From: Spirochaetia bacterium
Lineage (GTDB): Bacteria > Spirochaetota > Spirochaetia > CADAEX01
NCBI GenBank assembly: GCA_045606105.1
Contig: JAZURI010000001.1
Location: forward strand, 64,001-128,000
Reading direction: 5' to 3'
Length of the DNA stretch: 64,000 nucleotides
The translations under genes were made by a program, and so were the position numbers. How positions within the stretch are numbered: position 1 is the first letter of the stretch; the number at the start of each line of letters is the position of its first letter. The notes under the pieces are model-generated. The model saw only the letters and a program-made list of their open reading frames with translations, ran no database searches and was not told the DNA's origin. Shown piece by piece: positions 3,497 through 36,697 of this stretch.

Positions 3497-4160
3497 TTAT
3501 TCTTTTTCATTTCCAAATATCCTTTTTTTTGCAATATCGAAGTATTTCTCTTGAATCTCATAACCTATAAACTTGCGATTCAGCACCTTGGCAGCTACAC
3601 CTGTGGTACCACTCCCCATAAAGCAATCCAGGACAACATCGTTTTCTGTTGTACCGTCTTGGATAAGTTTTTTAATAAGGTTGACAGGCTTCTGGGTAGG
3701 ATGGACTTTCTCTCCATCTGTTTTTTTAGCCCCAGAAGAAAACCCAGGAATATCCATAATAACATTACTCCCCCCCCCTCGAAATTTTTGATTTTCCAGT
3801 TGCAAAAATAATAAACTCATGAGCATAGCTATAATAAGAGCCGGGTCCGGCTCCTTTGTCCCAGACTAACAAGTTTTTGATTGTAAGAAACTCATTGATG
3901 ATGGGGTAATAGAACGCATAACCCCGCCAGTCAGTAAAAAAGTAAAAGGAATAATCTGCAGAAAGAACCCTTTTTATTTCTTTCATCAGAGCTTTAAAAA
4001 AATAGGCACTGATATTCAGGTCCGCAAATTCATAGGAACTGCCGTTGTGACTAAGACCTTGGAAGTAAGGAGGGTCTGTAATAATGCAGTTGACGCCGTG
4101 ATCCGGCAGTTTCTTTATTCCTTCGAGGCAATCCGTGTTATAAATTTTTACATTTTCCAT
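3497..4160 (-). pseudogene. Beta-class N6A/N4C DNA methyltransferase, frameshifted at a G9 tract (possibly phase-variable)
   Basis: N-half has IITDPPY, C-half has HPTQKP and VLDCFMGSGTTG; removing one G from the run at 3770-3778 gives a single 220-aa ORF. Confidence 0.85.
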
Positions 4161-4195: not shown

Positions 4196-4271
4196 AGAAG
4201 TGGAAACCAAGGAAGCGATGTATTCCCGCCTATGGAATATGGAGCTAAACATTATGGTTTCCATTTTTTTT
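4196..4271 (+). ncRNA. Putative ~75-nt antisense structured RNA overlapping the MuF-nuclease stop codon
   Basis: 5' AGAAGTGGAAACCA pairs with 3' TGGTTTCCATTTTT (G-U only on + strand), inner hairpin TATTCC-7nt-GGAATA, T8 tail, upstream promoter. Confidence 0.45.
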
Positions 4272-5733
4272 GCTTTATCGTTTGCCGTGAAATATTATAA
4301 ATTTTGTTCTGCCAGTCTAAAATTACTTCTTTAACAGGGGTCATAATAACCCCTTTATACAATCCATTAATAATTTCATCGGAAGTTGTTTCTGGCAAGG
4401 CTTTTATATATACAATTCTTGCATGTTGAGCTCGACCAGCCCGCTGAATATCATTAGCAATAGAAGTTGTTTTAGGGTTTTTCATTTCACCAATTTGGTT
4501 GTCAATTAACATGTCTGGATTCTTAACTTTAAAAAGGTTACCAGCAGGCAGCATATAAACCTTGTGTCCATTATCTGCTAATCTCCTTGCATTATCATAT
4601 TCTATTTTTGCATCTGTAGGTTCTTTTGCTTCATCCCAGTTTGTGGCTAGTTTTATATAGCCCCCTGTTTTTGATGTATAGTCCAATTTATACCCTTTAA
4701 GTATTTCTTTCTGATAATTTTTCATGTCAAGGTCATATGCCTCCTGAAGAACATCTTTCCAGATTCCAAAATCCTCTGCTCTTTTAATCATAGACGGAGT
4801 AAGTTGCCACCAACTTTCTTTTTCTACAGGATTACCACCGAATCCCTCCTGTGGTTTAAATTTGCGGAACCGCTTCATAGGAGGTTCCTCAACAATTACA
4901 TCTTTGGCAACCTGGGAACTATAAATTCCACGGAATGTTGTCCTGCAATTAAAATGATAAGGTGGGTATCCATACCGATCCCAGAAAGGATGGTCTGCAG
5001 GGAGAGCCAACCCATTAGTCTCCTGAAAAAGCTCGTGGCAGATATGGCTCTGGCGGTCATCATTGATAAAGAAAAGCTGTATAGCCACCGGTTTTGTATC
5101 TTCAAACTCGGTGAGCTTGCCGGAAGTATATATGGTGTTCATATTTGTCCGGTAAACAGTCTCCCAATAGCCCGGTCTTATCGGATCAATATTATCGGTG
5201 TCTATGAGATTTTTTAAATCGCTCCAGCTCTCTGAAATTCCTTTGCCTTTCTCCACTGCATCTATAAGCTGCTGCTGCACCTGGTATACATAATCTGCCT
5301 TGGTCTGGTTTGCAACGCAAAAAGCTCTAAACCGCAGCTTTGGTTCAAGCTCTTCCCATTCTTCTTGGGTAACAGGAATTTGACCTCTTAAGAAATCAAG
5401 AGATTTATCAAATACGACTTCATCAACATCTGCAGAGTTGATTTTTTTAGCCGCATGATTCATTCCGAGCAAGAACGCTCCGGCAAAGGTTATTTCTGAA
5501 TCTTCTACCAATTTGTTGTCGGATGCGATATCGATAGAATAGGCTTCTTCTATCTTTTCTTTTGCAGGAGCTTTGCCATCTGGTGAAAGATGCTTTAAAT
5601 AGTTTTTTAACTCTTCTGCAACAGCCTTATAAAAACGTTTTTTTGCAGCGGTGACAAAGTTCTCAAACTCCTGGCTTTTTATGACTTCCTCTGCAAAGCT
5701 TGTGTCGCTTAAGAGAAGTTCAGAGCTTTTTTT
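4252..5733 (-). CDS. Mu gpF-like minor head protein with C-terminal CdiA-like PD-(D/E)xK nuclease domain; probably expressed as a portal fusion by frameshift
   Basis: ETVYRTN and WD..YPPYHFNCRT MuF motifs; C-terminal NPDMLIDNQIGEMK...RAGRAQHARIV; frame open from 5733 but first ATG/GTG/TTG only at 5511. Confidence 0.8.
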   Translation of the reverse strand, partial: KKSSELLLSDTSFAEEVIKSQEFENFVTAAKKRFYKAVAEELKNYLKHLSPDGKAPAKEKIEEAYSIDIASDNKLVEDSEITFAGAFLLGMNHAAKKINSADVDEVVFDKSLDFLRGQIPVTQEEWEELEPKLRFRAFCVANQTKADYVYQVQQQLIDAVEKGKGISESWSDLKNLIDTDNIDPIRPGYWETVYRTNMNTIYTSGKLTEFEDTKPVAIQLFFINDDRQSHICHELFQETNGLALPADHPFWDRYGYPPYHFNCRTTFRGIYSSQVAKDVIVEEPPMKRFRKFKPQEGFGGNPVEKESWWQLTPSMIKRAEDFGIWKDVLQEAYDLDMKNYQKEILKGYKLDYTSKTGGYIKLATNWDEAKEPTDAKIEYDNARRLADNGHKVYMLPAGNLFKVKNPDMLIDNQIGEMKNPKTTSIANDIQRAGRAQHARIVYIKALPETTSDEIINGLYKGVIMTPVKEVILDWQNKIYNISRQTIKQKKWKP

Positions 5734-6929
5734 TTACCAGAATCAGAAAGCATAAAACCCTGGGGCTGTGTCTCTTTCTTGAAAGTGTCATCATCATCGG
5801 CAGGCTGTGGCAATCCGTAGTCTGTATAAAGGGCCTGCTTGGACACAGGAACACCTCTGTCTATTGCCTGCATAAGCTGGTCAAAGCTGGCCTTCTTCTC
5901 GACATTGAACTCAAACTTTGGAGCTATGACATCGGGGCCAAAGTTAAGCTCTACAGTCCAGTCAATTACATGCTGGAGGACGTTCTGCAGCTCCAGGGCA
6001 ATTCCCTTGCAGTCCTCATATAAAAGATCTGCCTGGACTTCTCCCAGGGCAAGGCTGCCGCCGTCTGTCTTGCTGGTGGCAATAGCCTGGCCAGTCAGAC
6101 CGTAACAGATTTGTGTGTCGCAGGCGTCGACCAGGGAAGCAAATCCAATAAGATCTCCTGCCATCCCGACTTCCTTGACATCCCGGATATTTGCCACAGC
6201 TGATGCGGAGCCGGACTCCACACCCAGCAGCATGCGGGCTATATCGTCGGCGCGTTTCTGGATTGAATTCTCATCTCCGTCTGCCTCGAACAGAGCGATG
6301 ATTGATTTGACGCTAAACTTCTCGGTGGCCTGGAGCCAGAACTCGTAGCCGGCCTGCTTGAACATCCATGCCCAGTACACGCAGCGGAGGACAGATGTAC
6401 CATAAGGGTTCTCGTCGTCCGGGTCGTGCTGGAAACGGAGCCACTTATAGTCCTCGTCCAGCTTCTTGCGGTCGCCTATGCCGCCCCAGAAAAGTTCCCA
6501 GTCCGCATTGAAGTAAAAGCGGTCAGGTTTCCTGGTGATGATATTCTCCGGTATCCACTTGCCGGAATTTAAAGCCGGATCTGCCCAGACAAGTTCAGAG
6601 ATGGAAAAACCGTAGTCGAGGGCTGCGAGCATTCTTTTCTCTTTTTTGTACATGTTTTGGAACAGGGGGATATTCCTGATAAAATCATATACTTTGTCAG
6701 GGCAATCTTCCGGCTGATTTATAGCGTGTGGGAAATTGAGGGCAGTGGTCTTGAGCTTGTTCAGGAGAGATTTGATCCTACCGTCTGTCCTCATCTTGCG
6801 GTAGGTCTCGTATGACTCGACAGTTCCCGAGACTATGTCATCAGGGTTTGGCATATAGTTGAGGAAAGACCCCAGCTTGTTGTCGTTTATGACCTGGCTG
6901 GTCATTGTTTTTTTGTCCGCTTTTTTCAT
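5709..6929 (-). CDS. Portal protein (Mu gp29/DUF935-like)
   Basis: ALDYGFSISELVW, NPYGTSVLR..YW.W.FK, GGSLALGEVQ motifs; directly after terminase. Confidence 0.9.
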   Translation of the reverse strand: MKKADKKTMTSQVINDNKLGSFLNYMPNPDDIVSGTVESYETYRKMRTDGRIKSLLNKLKTTALNFPHAINQPEDCPDKVYDFIRNIPLFQNMYKKEKRMLAALDYGFSISELVWADPALNSGKWIPENIITRKPDRFYFNADWELFWGGIGDRKKLDEDYKWLRFQHDPDDENPYGTSVLRCVYWAWMFKQAGYEFWLQATEKFSVKSIIALFEADGDENSIQKRADDIARMLLGVESGSASAVANIRDVKEVGMAGDLIGFASLVDACDTQICYGLTGQAIATSKTDGGSLALGEVQADLLYEDCKGIALELQNVLQHVIDWTVELNFGPDVIAPKFEFNVEKKASFDQLMQAIDRGVPVSKQALYTDYGLPQPADDDDTFKKETQPQGFMLSDSGKKKALNFS

Positions 6930-8479
6930 ATTCTCGCTCTCCTGATAATATTCTTTGACTTAGGATGATGGTGGTGCCGGCTTACTGCGACTGTACCGGT
7001 ACCGGCTTTTTCGGCTGCCTTGATTGCCAGCCACAAGCCGTCACACAGGTCATCGTATGCGCCCAGCGGAAATTCTGTAAGCTGGGTCTCTATATTGCTG
7101 GTTCCTTTCTCGGGGAACCGTACAAAGCCGTTCTGTATAAGCATGGAGTAGGACCTGATGCGCATCTCCTTTGATGCGCCGCCGGTACCTACTTTTATAA
7201 TAGGAAGATAAACGCTCCGCTCTATGCCCAGCTTCTGGATATAATTGCCATAGATTCCAGAGAACGCCACATCCTCCCATGCTATTGCGCCGAACCGGTA
7301 AGCCCGGTGCAGCATTATCATCTGATCCACAGTCCTCTGCTCGCTGCAGGCTTCTCCGAAACAAGGCAGCACATAGATGATGCCGGTTTCTTTGTCCCTG
7401 GCAATAGGCACCTCTGCAGTACCGTCGTGCTTGCCTGTCGCAGGGTCGACACCCAGGAAGAACCGCAGGTTCCCTTTGGGTGGCAGGCTGCTGTAACGGT
7501 TGGCATCAATCCATTCCTGTTGGATGATACGCTCCTCATCGGCCAGCGGCTCGTTCATATATTCTGTGCTGAACGCTGCGACACCGATGGTCTTCTTTTT
7601 CTCCTCAAGGGATTCCAGATCCCAGTATTCCGGCCACAGTGGTGTGCCGTCTGGGCGTATACATCCCAGGCGCACGGCAATCCACTTGACCAGGGTACCA
7701 GCCTCCAGCTCACGGCAGAGCCTGGATATAGGGTCGTCGTTGTGGAATATGGTGTTGACCCAGATGATGAATGCTTTCTTGCCCAGATTGAATACAACCC
7801 GTTTAAGCCATCGGTATATCTTGTTCCTCTGGGTAGGTGAGTTTACAGCATCATCCTTCAGAAGGTCGTCTGCTACAATCAGATCAGGGCGGTACTGGCG
7901 GTATCTGGTACCTCGCATGGAGGCACCGGAACCTTTAGACTGCAGGCAGGTGCCGTTTGCAAGCTCAAGCCTCTTGTTGGTCCATACTTTTCCCTGGAGC
8001 TGTCCGAAGTCCTCTGCAAGGCGCTCGTTCTCCTCCAGCTCAAGCTTGATATTGTTAAGGTTCTCGCTGGCAGCGTCACCGCTTGCGCCTATAAGAAGCA
8101 CATATCTTGCGCGGCCGGTCAGGACACACCACAGCACATAAGCAAATGACCAGCGGACTGTCTTACCATGCTCTCTCGGCTCGATGAACATGGCTCCTGA
8201 TATCTTTGTGGTTGCCCGGAGCAGCGGCCAGTATTTCTCCCGGACAAAATATCTCAGGTGCTGGGCGTTAGCTGCAGAGAGGCTGCGGCTGTTGGCCACA
8301 TCATATAGCACCTGCTGGTATTCCGCAGGATCCTCAAAGAAGTAGTCTGATAAATAATACTGGCAGAAAAAGCCGAAGTCCTTGGCCGCTTTCTCTTTGC
8401 GCCGCGCAGCTTCAGAGGCTTTTTCAATATCGTTAAAACTGCCATTTAACAGCTCGGCTAATGCCGATTTATCAGCCAT
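6926..8479 (-). CDS. Terminase large subunit
   Basis: Walker A-like PREHGKT, RPDLIVADD Walker B, FSTEYMNEP, GVDPA and YDDLCDG nuclease motifs. Confidence 0.92.
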   Translation of the reverse strand: MADKSALAELLNGSFNDIEKASEAARRKEKAAKDFGFFCQYYLSDYFFEDPAEYQQVLYDVANSRSLSAANAQHLRYFVREKYWPLLRATTKISGAMFIEPREHGKTVRWSFAYVLWCVLTGRARYVLLIGASGDAASENLNNIKLELEENERLAEDFGQLQGKVWTNKRLELANGTCLQSKGSGASMRGTRYRQYRPDLIVADDLLKDDAVNSPTQRNKIYRWLKRVVFNLGKKAFIIWVNTIFHNDDPISRLCRELEAGTLVKWIAVRLGCIRPDGTPLWPEYWDLESLEEKKKTIGVAAFSTEYMNEPLADEERIIQQEWIDANRYSSLPPKGNLRFFLGVDPATGKHDGTAEVPIARDKETGIIYVLPCFGEACSEQRTVDQMIMLHRAYRFGAIAWEDVAFSGIYGNYIQKLGIERSVYLPIIKVGTGGASKEMRIRSYSMLIQNGFVRFPEKGTSNIETQLTEFPLGAYDDLCDGLWLAIKAAEKAGTGTVAVSRHHHHPKSKNIIRRARI

Positions 8480-9002
8480 TCTCTTCCTTCGCCCTCATGT
8501 TCTTGACAATCTCTAGAATGGTCTTGAGCACGTCAGGATGCTGGTCTTTCAGCTCCTTGTTGAGCTCGGCTATGAAGTCTGCCTTTGCGGACTCATAGCC
8601 CTTGTTATATTTAAGCCGCTCTGCGGCAAGCTTGGTCTGCGATGTGGCAACCGCTGTAACCAGCTTCGAGATATCGCTGACCGATTTGAGTTCTATGCCG
8701 TCGATGTTCTTGATCTCCGACAGGAACTTGGTGGCGATTACGGCATTGATGGCCTCGATGACCTCGGTGCCGGGATTGTTCTTGATAGCTTCGGTAATGG
8801 CCTTGGCCTCTTCGTAGGCCAGGTTGTAATCTTTGGCAGCCTCTGCAGCGGTCTTGACAGTCCTCCGCACCGCCTCCCTGGATATATCTATGCCGTCCTG
8901 TCTGAGGATGGCCTCAATCTGTTTGCATGTGGTTCCTTTCTTGTAGAGCCTGGTTATGCGCTCGACAAGCCCCAGCAGTTCTGCTTTTGACTTTCTACCC
9001 AT
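8472..9002 (-). CDS. Mu gp27/DUF3486-like putative terminase small subunit
   Basis: MGRKSK start, HTH with ISREAVRR, position immediately before large terminase. Confidence 0.75.
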   Translation of the reverse strand: MGRKSKAELLGLVERITRLYKKGTTCKQIEAILRQDGIDISREAVRRTVKTAAEAAKDYNLAYEEAKAITEAIKNNPGTEVIEAINAVIATKFLSEIKNIDGIELKSVSDISKLVTAVATSQTKLAAERLKYNKGYESAKADFIAELNKELKDQHPDVLKTILEIVKNMRAKEENG

Positions 9003-35975: not shown

Positions 35976-36113
35976 TCAAGCATTGAGTGCCGCAATCTCT
36001 TCTGGCTGGCCACTGATGGAGATTGAGACACGCTTGATTCCAGTTGCAGGCCTGCCCTGCCTGGGACGTACGCCGCCCCAGCTCGGGTTATACTGTTTGT
36101 CTGGATTCTTCAT
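35976..36113 (-). CDS. Short RHH/CopG-like regulator, possibly truncated
   Basis: WGGVRPRQGRP..G.KRVSISIS...EE; RBS AAGGA. Confidence 0.4.
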   Translation of the reverse strand: MKNPDKQYNPSWGGVRPRQGRPATGIKRVSISISGQPEEIAALNA

Positions 36114-36121
36114 GCAACTTT
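36105..36121 (-). repeat. 17-bp sub-terminal inverted repeat, right
   Basis: ATTCTTCATGCAACTTT equals reverse complement of 2344-2360. Confidence 0.7.
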
Positions 36122-36272
36122 CCTTATGATGATGTATGTGTTGGCTTAAATGGAGATTAAAAGGGTATAAAAAATAAGTTGAAAACACAGTAAAACACAA
36201 AAAAACACTCAAAAGCATGATATTTTTCTCAAATTAAATGCTTTTTTTTTGCAAAAAGCTCGATGCGTTACA

Positions 36273-36697
36273 TTTATACCATCAAAAAATTTAACATCTG
36301 TTATTTCTGTGATGCCGCATTTTTCCAATATTAATTTTGCAGCAGGCCAGTTTTCTTCTGAAATCCCTAATTTATGCCAAACTTGGTTTTGATTTGTACT
36401 TGCAGAGTCAGTAGTATGCTCTGATGATTCATCGGACATACCAGTTGAAACAGCACCCACAATAGCACACAAAAACATAAAAATTAAATACCCAATGGCA
36501 AAATTTTTTAATTTTTTTAATTTTCTTTTTTTAGTGTAGAAGTTTGACTCAGATGTATCCCACTCAGTTGAGTTTACCGGTTTAATTCGTGTTGCAAAAA
36601 TACAATCCCACTCCGAAATACGAGCACCGCAATGCGGACAACTTTTTGCCTTTGTAGAAACAGGATTATTACAATCTTTGCATAGTATTAGAGCCAT
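36273..36697 (-). pseudogene. 5' half of zinc-ribbon membrane protein gene interrupted by prophage
   Basis: MALI.CKDC...VS.KA.SCPHCG, TM helix; rejoins 2335-1909 to give 283 aa. Confidence 0.9.

Follow-up and report, generated by a model that had tools for sequence, protein, structure and literature searches.

A candidate programmed slippage site at the junction of portal and MuF genes in the head module of Mu-like prophages

The stretch of DNA analysed here, which we call the window, comprises 64,000 nucleotides (nt) from the genome of a Spirochaetia bacterium (GenBank assembly GCA_045606105.1, contig JAZURI010000001.1, positions 64,001 to 128,000), and its minus strand carries a Mu-type head module in which the portal gene and the frame encoding the MuF protein meet at a run of nine adenines (A9). 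The module begins with a Mu gp27-like gene, followed by an open reading frame (ORF) of 517 amino acids (aa), the portal gene and, directly 3' of the portal gene, the MuF frame (Table 1). The portal matches the Pfam profile Portal_Mu over its whole length (profile positions 1-336 of 336; expectation value (E) 3.4e-56; 191.5 bits against a cut-off of 23.9). A Pfam search with the 517-aa ORF returned no match at E<=0.01.

The 3' end of the portal gene reads GGT AAA AAA AAA GCT CTG AAC TTC TCT TAA, and the MuF frame lies at -1 relative to it. Because the TAA that closes the MuF frame upstream overlaps the start of the run, this frame can be entered only within the run. The first ATG, GTG or TTG that it offers lies 74 codons in, and no Shine-Dalgarno-like sequence was seen upstream of that TTG; the gene call in the protein database for the window MuF (P0003) begins further inside still, at the methionine of 'MNHAA'. 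A single uninterrupted portal-MuF ORF is not present in the window, which holds two frames, each with its own stop. A -1 shift, or one added A, would join the two into a protein of 401 + 491 = 892 aa with the junction ...SGKKKSSELLLSDTSF. A preliminary description of this locus had reported just these features, namely an A9 run in the last portal codons at which the MuF frame begins, a MuF frame open for 74 codons upstream of a TTG without a ribosome-binding site, and a potential fusion of about 892 aa, and our reading of the frames agrees with it on all three. The window contains two A9 runs where shuffled sequences contain 1.67 +/- 1.81. Such a run is thus not rare by itself in this A+T-rich DNA, and the signal has to be sought in its position and its conservation.

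Table 1. Features of the portal-MuF region, with positions in the window, and related loci with the mirrored arrangement.
Feature	Position or loci	Strand	Remarks
Mu gp27-like gene	9002..8472	-	
517-aa ORF	8479..6926	-	taken as large terminase by position only
Portal gene (Mu gp29-type), 406 aa by standard decoding	6929..5709	-	Pfam Portal_Mu PF06074; PHROG 113 portal
TAA in the MuF (-1) frame, made of the T of GGT and the first two A's of the run	5736..5734	-	closes the MuF frame upstream
A9 run, AAA AAA AAA, Lys399-401 in the portal frame	5735..5727	-	proposed slippery site, for a -1 slip or the insertion of one A
Whole MuF reading frame, 493 codons and stop	5733..4252	-	
Start-less 74-codon N-terminal extension of MuF	5512..5733	-	reachable only by slippage
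Hairpin suggested in the preliminary description	5719..5684	-	in minimum-energy fold; not above chance, not conserved
Portal stop TAA	5709..5711	-	15 nt past the A9 run
First ATG/GTG/TTG of the MuF frame, a TTG	5509..5511	-	74 codons in
Phage_Mu_F domain, residues 151-267 of P0002	4933..5283	-	Pfam PF04233, 43.3 bits (cut-off 29.6); PHROG 220 'minor head protein and DNA pilot'
C-terminal domain with predicted CdiA-CT-like PD-(D/E)XK fold, putative nuclease/toxin	4255..4740	-	predicted structure
In-frame A9 fusions of RcapMu-like prophages	L201, L204-L206, L209, L210, L212, L213, L221, L226, L233		mirror image of the window layout

The run and the frame relation are conserved among spirochaete relatives of the prophage. 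A search with the MuF frame gave 205 homologues at E<=0.001, most of them in Treponemataceae; among 41 relatives of the host genome the frame had two matches, the host itself and a 36-residue fragment. An alignment of 23 MuF homologues, used as query, recovered 80 loci in species genomes and a further 79 in viral contigs, where a scan of the viral contigs with a single protein query had found nothing. Portal and MuF matches lay in order and on one strand in 146 loci, the window included, which reduce to 125 unique junctions. At 118 of these the MuF frame overlaps the portal end in the -1 frame, and two further loci (L041, with A9, and L058, with nine thymines, T9) have the same -1 junction with a MuF frame that is broken further on, for a total of 120 of 125. 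The run lengths counted by script are A9 at 70 junctions, A10 at 19, A11 at 1, T9 at 15, T7 at 13, T10 at 3 and T8 at 2. At the homologous place a run was picked up by script at 124 of the 125 junctions and by eye at the remaining one. L041 and L058 were read by eye and stand outside this tally of lengths; runs of at least 9 nt are found at 108 of the 125 junctions by script and at 110 when these two are added. All 70 A9 loci have the -1 layout, and at 40 of them a TAA overlaps the start of the run, which then begins 2 nt before the first open codon. The layout persists as portal identity to the window drops from 68% to 28.6%. On a FastTree tree of 121 near-full-length portals (87 with an A run and 34 with a T run, the other four junctions being omitted for a short or interrupted portal match), the base of the run switches between A and T at least five times.

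The MuF frames of these loci mostly open well before their first possible start codon. The first ATG, GTG or TTG falls a median of 152 nt after the run and at least 100 nt after it in 86 of 118 loci; since these three codons make up 4.5% of the codons in the MuF body, the expected median wait would be about 15 codons. The similarity of the proteins reaches into this start-less part. With the window MuF frame as query, the tblastn match begins at query residue 30 or earlier in 102 of 117 loci, and in 86 of the 117 it covers 20 or more of the codons that precede the first start, in 15 none of them. The 74-residue extension used alone matched only 14 of 117 loci at E<1e-3, being too short and too diverged to serve as a query. 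Substitutions in the start-less segment downstream of the portal stop are concentrated in third codon positions, with 29, 19 and 98 of 146 mismatches at positions 1, 2 and 3 (chi-square p 3e-17; 17 non-overlapping locus pairs of 80-99% identity, each locus used once). A motif just after the run ('..LLSD..' in the window, '..FLAD..' in L003) appears in the -1 frame of 21 of 118 loci and in neither of the other two frames (0 of 118 each), and the first residues after the run are variable and linker-like in the remaining loci. The closest MuF homologues in the database are called from internal Met codons; the start-less extension of the window is covered in the alignment by long ones such as P0021 (504 aa) and P0023, P0024 and P0026 (about 494 aa). 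Judged by how it evolves, the start-less N-terminus of MuF is coding sequence.

At the DNA level the stretch has no close relatives among cultured phages, whose portals match that of the window only at less than 30% identity. One of them, RcapMu, has a portal of about 26% identity that ends ..CTA CAA AAA AAA GCC TGA, with a run of eight adenines (A8), and its MuF frame is again at -1, open for 90 codons upstream of the annotated GTG. The GenBank annotation of RcapMu (NC_016165, genes 36/37) remarks that in the portal gene a 'possible +1 frameshift would allow readthrough' and that the MuF start 'lacks a good ribosome-binding site'. The same record carries a misc_feature, 'potential -1 frameshift', in gene 35 (L163 position 2042), a small gene directly 5' of the portal gene.

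The arrangement recurs in alphaproteobacterial prophages related to RcapMu, for which 80 RcapMu-like viral contigs were analysed together with RcapMu itself. Both genes were found in 78 of these 81 loci, which gave 74 unique junctions, and 49 of the 74 have a run and a MuF frame at -1. Another 11 are in-frame fusions of 925-1015 aa that retain A9 and have a stop in the -1 frame 5-29 nt behind the run. With the stop so placed, a slip at these loci would yield the portal alone. Twelve junctions have no run and an ATG or GTG of their own at the portal stop; one more is a fusion without a run, which brings the fused total to 12 of 74, and one has a run with MuF in another frame. The 61 run-bearing junctions comprise 58 with A9, two with A8 and one with A10. 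A guanine plus cytosine (G+C) content of about 65% is given for RcE phages in PMC8601537, and nine consecutive A's are conspicuous in DNA of that composition.

Control prophages of the BcepMu-like clade look different. From 80 loci, 22 were dropped as duplicates or as too short past the portal stop, and none of the 58 unique junctions that were left has a run of at least 7 nt, while 57 of the 58 have an ATG 20 nt before the portal end. Likewise, Mushu, PhiKM (BcepMu-like) and a Helicobacter pullorum prophage have no A or T run of at least 7 nt at the junction, and in each the MuF ATG overlaps the portal end. This pairing across clades, of a run with no start and of no run with an own start, indicates that the tract accompanies the lack of an own start; 'extend' and 'truncate' layouts alike have retained it. 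The marks of a recoded gene pair (no start of its own for the downstream gene, a protein conserved from the shift site onwards and a frame relation that is kept) are present at the spirochaete and alphaproteobacterial junctions alike. The preliminary description had named conservation of the run and of the start-less overlap as its check, and homologues with an independent MuF start and no slippery run as the finding that would speak against it; what recurs is the run with a start-less MuF at -1, at 120 of 125 spirochaete and 49 of 74 RcapMu-like junctions.

The bases that flank the runs follow patterns of their own. At all 70 spirochaete A9 junctions the run is preceded by T, across several codons and both phases, and it is followed by G at 45 and by C at 25, never by T. 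The A10 loci are preceded by T, C or G, as if T-A9 and A10 interconvert by substitution, and among RcapMu-like loci the base before the run is often C.

In our view the head module of this Mu-like prophage very probably contains, at the junction, a conserved site of programmed slippage that fuses the portal to a start-less MuF. The recurrent run, the constant -1 relation, the start-less N-terminus and its coding-like evolution all support the programmed recoding that the preliminary description had proposed. The anatomy of the junction, its conservation and the coding constraint on the start-less part are matters of observation, and from them we infer that slippage takes place in a fraction of expression events. 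Standard decoding would give the portal, ending shortly past the run, and now and then a -1 move on the run would give instead the 892-aa fusion of portal, MuF and the CdiA-CT-like domain. Lacking an initiation site, MuF would be made only through the slip, whose rate would set the ratio of MuF to portal, and every MuF so made would be tied covalently to the C-terminal end of a portal subunit. In established portal structures this end lies inside the capsid. It is reasonable to suppose that slippage in this way fixes the stoichiometry of MuF and ensures that it is packaged. A later release of MuF from the fusion, through proteolysis as the head matures, is a speculative idea; in Mu, maturation includes processing of the portal, which forms an early complex with F.

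Contigs from other sources allow the length of the tract to be compared. Parts of the stretch occur in 20 sequencing runs from 11 studies, mostly labelled as ruminant or other animal gut metagenomes, all of them DNA and all represented as contigs. Four runs from four studies were aligned to the window at the level of Logan contigs; one contig (X5) ends short of the run, and the other three (X1, X2 and X3, from three studies) cross positions 5727-5735 with 0 gaps, carrying 27, 28 and 6 substitutions. X1 and X2 carry TGA in place of TAA as the portal stop. The A9 layout is independent of assembly error. The preliminary description had allowed that the locus might be a plain fusion gene with A10, mis-assembled; at the contig level, A9 is found in all three spanning contigs, and neither of the two findings that the description had named as refuting has been borne out. 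In the protein database, a search limited to longer proteins found only two fused relatives, both of 879 aa and with KKK at the joint. The same three contigs match the window as far as the early MuF extension (about position 5571 in X1 and X2 and about 5546 in X3) and then continue into unrelated sequence, which suggests a mosaic recombination joint inside the N-terminal region of MuF.

Several observations weigh against programmed slippage and have to be set beside the alternatives that they favor. The related loci are not independent samples. Five of the 125 spirochaete junctions are off the pattern, three of them in-frame fusions that run through longer tracts (L024 and L099 with A10, L089 with A11) and two with MuF in the +1 frame (L035 with A10, L064 with T10). 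L088, with A10 and the -1 layout, is otherwise the same Treponema phagedenis-like sequence as the fused L089, and the protein P0021, from another assembly, implies A9 and a TTG start in the third frame. As these lengths differ, DNA-level variation or sequencing error does occur at the tract, and the differences could be either real tract instability or homopolymer sequencing error. A start codon lies within 30 nt of the run end in 5 of 118 loci and upstream of the run in 3, and in the window an ATA (5682..5680) with GAGGAA 3 nt (GTC) upstream is a conceivable rare start. It is conceivable, then, that an assembly or sequencing error has split a plain fusion gene whose true run is A10, or that the prophage is decaying and has suffered a frameshift mutation, given that homopolymers are error-prone and that a few related records are in frame. 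We regard this as extremely improbable, since three independently assembled contigs from three studies keep A9, both frames are intact, the start-less part is under coding constraint and the -1 state is dominant in two phyla, where errors would scatter both ways around a fused majority. Phase variation at the DNA level, with slipped-strand mispairing switching a lineage between portal-only and portal-MuF states, would draw on the A10 and A11 of L088 and L089, on P0021, on the three junctions fused through longer runs and the two in the +1 frame, and on a run of nine guanines (G9) that splits a DNA methylase gene in the same prophage. This too is improbable, because the -1 state holds at 120 of 125 and 49 of 74 junctions and at all 70 A9 loci, the spanning contigs (3 of 3) are A9, a portal-only genome would make no full-length MuF, and the alphaproteobacterial fusions differ outside the run and are still A9. 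The remaining alternative is that MuF is initiated independently, at TTG 5511, at the 'MNHAA' ATG, at the ATA or by re-initiation after the portal stop, and that the run and the open frame are incidental. Gene callers do begin most database homologues at an internal Met, an own start at the portal stop is indeed used at 12 of 74 RcapMu-like junctions and throughout the BcepMu-like clade, and the GAGGAA could serve the ATA; yet conservation of the protein, with a third-position substitution bias, extends upstream of any start, long homologues align through the extension, and loci with an own start have no run while loci with a run have, as a rule, no nearby start. Independent initiation is accordingly quite improbable.

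A different question is whether the RNA polymerase or the ribosome would slip, as both kinds of slip give the same junction peptide. The run-bearing sites of both clades consist of A or T alone, 9 is the commonest length in both phyla, and no mixed X XXY YYZ heptamer occurs among the run-bearing sites of either. The RNA-DNA hybrid is itself nine nt long, as are the tracts used at known slippage sites, according to the main text of PMC3711429. The preliminary description had ascribed the shift to the ribosome, stimulated by a hairpin that begins 7 nt downstream of the run. The stem does occur in the minimum-energy fold of the region (-11.3 kcal/mol), but an equal or better fold is reached by 81 of 200 dinucleotide shuffles (z -0.17), and no flanking structure is conserved over the 118 homologous junctions, where the mean z is -0.14 in the 55 nt downstream, -0.21 upstream and -0.05 in a control segment 300 nt further on (paired tests not significant); we have rejected the hairpin as a stimulator. 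No consistent Shine-Dalgarno-like stimulator upstream was apparent by eye at the spirochaete junctions inspected. A stimulator is not obligatory for every known -1 frameshift site. On account of the pure homopolymers, the modal length of 9 and the lack of a stimulator, we lean modestly towards RNA polymerase adding one A on A9 or T9, rather than ribosomal -1 tandem slippage on A AAA AAA, with a small share left for both together or for variation in the DNA. Some of the sites pull the other way. The window GGT AAA AAA AAA GCT holds A AAA AAA in register, the direction of the shift is consistently -1, and a phase-0 run, as found at 40 of 70 A9 loci, needs nine A's to hold an in-register heptamer. 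Moreover, all 13 T7 loci, which are essentially one clade plus L044, read GAT TTT TTT C.., so that they fit the X XXY YYZ register exactly, and for efficient slippage of the polymerase a T7 tract is short. Against the ribosome stand, besides the unremarkable hairpin and the missing stimulators, the absence of mixed heptamers and the 30 phase-2 A9 loci, which hold two A's beyond what a heptamer needs. Ribosomal frameshifting, with or without the hairpin, seems to us the less likely of the two.

The fusion would also carry whatever function resides in the end of MuF. The last 162 residues were modelled by AlphaFold2 from a 70-row alignment (predicted local distance difference test score, pLDDT, 89.2), and the best Foldseek match of the model is CdiA-CT of Burkholderia pseudomallei (4g6v_A; E 4e-5, probability 1.00, template-modelling (TM) scores 0.52/0.61), followed by weak matches to Hjc resolvases. 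A search by sequence against solved structures gave no match for this domain, and its score with Pfam CdiA_C, 21.9 bits, is below the cut-off of 26.6. A PD-(D/E)XK-type nuclease or toxin fold is plausible on the strength of the model. The label 'nuclease' in the preliminary description is thus plausible as a matter of predicted structure and falls short of the Pfam threshold. The closest homologues (P0004-P0006) are 57-62% identical to the window protein overall and diverge from it after about residue 330, and the C-terminal region is swapped among close relatives, as in the polymorphic toxins treated in PMC5576092.

No immunity-like gene follows the end of the putative toxin: the ORFs that come next encode an N6_N4 DNA methylase, in two fragments, and a D12 methylase, and there is no small unassigned ORF between 4252 and 4160. 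The two fragments (ORFs 4160..3765 and 3826..3497) match Pfam profile positions 1-109 and 145-221 and add up to a single N6_N4 DNA methylase, the second half being in the +1 frame. They overlap, and a G9 tract (3770-3778, minus strand) lies just before the stop of the first. The methylase looks like a phase-variable or slippage-dependent gene within the same prophage.

Programmed slippage that gives a minor, C-terminally extended product is a known kind of event, seen in the tail chaperones G/GT, in dnaX and in mxiE. A conserved -1 frameshift in the tail assembly chaperone gene of double-stranded DNA phages, giving gpG and gpGT, was reportedly described by Xu, Hendrix and Duda in 2004. The likeness to the portal-MuF junction lies in a programmed -1 shift near the end of a morphogenesis gene, a minor extended product at a set ratio and a downstream ORF without a start; the differences are that tail genes are involved rather than portal and MuF, and that the varied X XXY YYZ heptamers there are read by the ribosome, whereas the sites here are pure A or T runs. 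In Shigella, mxiE and other type III secretion genes undergo transcriptional slippage on T9 or A10. Overlapping ORFs are fused there by RNA polymerase slipping on a 9-10 nt A or T run with no RNA stimulator, much as proposed here, although those genes are regulatory or secretory and have no role in phage assembly. In E. coli dnaX the ribosome shifts by -1 at A AAA AAG, and in Thermus and others the same result is reached by transcriptional slippage on A9 or A10. One homopolymer tract there gives two products with a common N-terminus, and extension and truncation layouts are found in different lineages, like the -1 loci and the in-frame A9 fusions described above; the difference is that dnaX serves replication in the cell rather than the virion, and that its mechanism has been shown by experiment. 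The dnaX tau/gamma case is treated in PMC3711429.

Closer to the genes in question, RcapMu shares the run at the portal end (A8) and the -1 MuF frame open for 90 codons upstream of a GTG, and differs in that a possible frameshift is mentioned there in an annotation note only. Microbacterium phages of clusters EA3/EA5/EA8 and EB have in-frame portal-MuF fusion genes, as stated in PMC7302621. They resemble the fusion proposed here in having portal and MuF as one polypeptide, in a form compatible with virion assembly; they differ in being plain single ORFs, for which no recoding is reported, where the fusion here would be conditional on a slip, and the comparison is one of gene arrangement. These fused genes, together with the 12 of 74 RcapMu-like junctions that are fused, indicate that a fused protein is tolerated. 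In SPP1, the MuF-type protein gp7 binds the portal gp6 and is present in one or two copies per capsid, according to PMC5576092. As here, the MuF gene lies directly after the portal gene, and that copy number is the ratio that a slip of roughly 10-20% would give; in the same account gp6 and gp7 come from separate genes and bind non-covalently, and gp7 has no toxin domain.

Full-text literature searches returned no description of a portal-MuF frameshift; outside their scope lie the 146 candidate clusters in the supplement to PMC3711429, the GeneTack survey, and the study of RcapMu by Fogg et al. (2011), either of which may hold a prior mention. The word 'frameshift' does not occur in the available text of PMC5576092, and 'portal' occurs neither in the first 300,000 characters of PMC5009743 nor in the main text of PMC3711429. 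The nearest hint is the note in the RcapMu GenBank record. What is apparently new is slippage at the portal-MuF junction, in two phyla and in two mirror layouts. It would add a large family, of about 180 distinct junctions (120 of 125, and 49 and 11 of 74), to the few programmed slippage sites that are known in phage structural genes, and the two mirror layouts make it hard to dismiss a function of the tract. If the interpretation is right, a covalent portal-MuF subunit would be a simple means of holding a minor head or pilot protein at a set copy number and would guarantee that a toxin-like cargo is packaged. Further, protein databases lack both the true N-termini and the fusion product, as most of the homologues in them are called from an internal Met. 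RcapMu, which can be cultured in Rhodobacter capsulatus and induced, offers a system for testing these predictions directly.

A wider picture, which may or may not prove true and which we hold only tentatively, is that of an ancient device spread across Spirochaetota and Alphaproteobacteria. The A9 or T9 tract would make RNA polymerase produce two mRNAs, so that a minority of covalent portal-MuF chimeras would enter the portal ring, the initiator of head assembly. In no other way would MuF, with the nuclease or toxin cargo at its C-terminus, be made and reach the inside of the capsid, and lineages would have flipped between slipping to extend and slipping to truncate while keeping the tract, as in dnaX.

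The second A9 of the window lies far from the head module, at 36242-36250 on the minus strand, in a 162-aa zinc-ribbon ORF (36697..36209) whose stop follows about 30 nt later. The ORF that follows (36218..35976) is also in the -1 frame and has an ATG of its own, and this second run is probably incidental.

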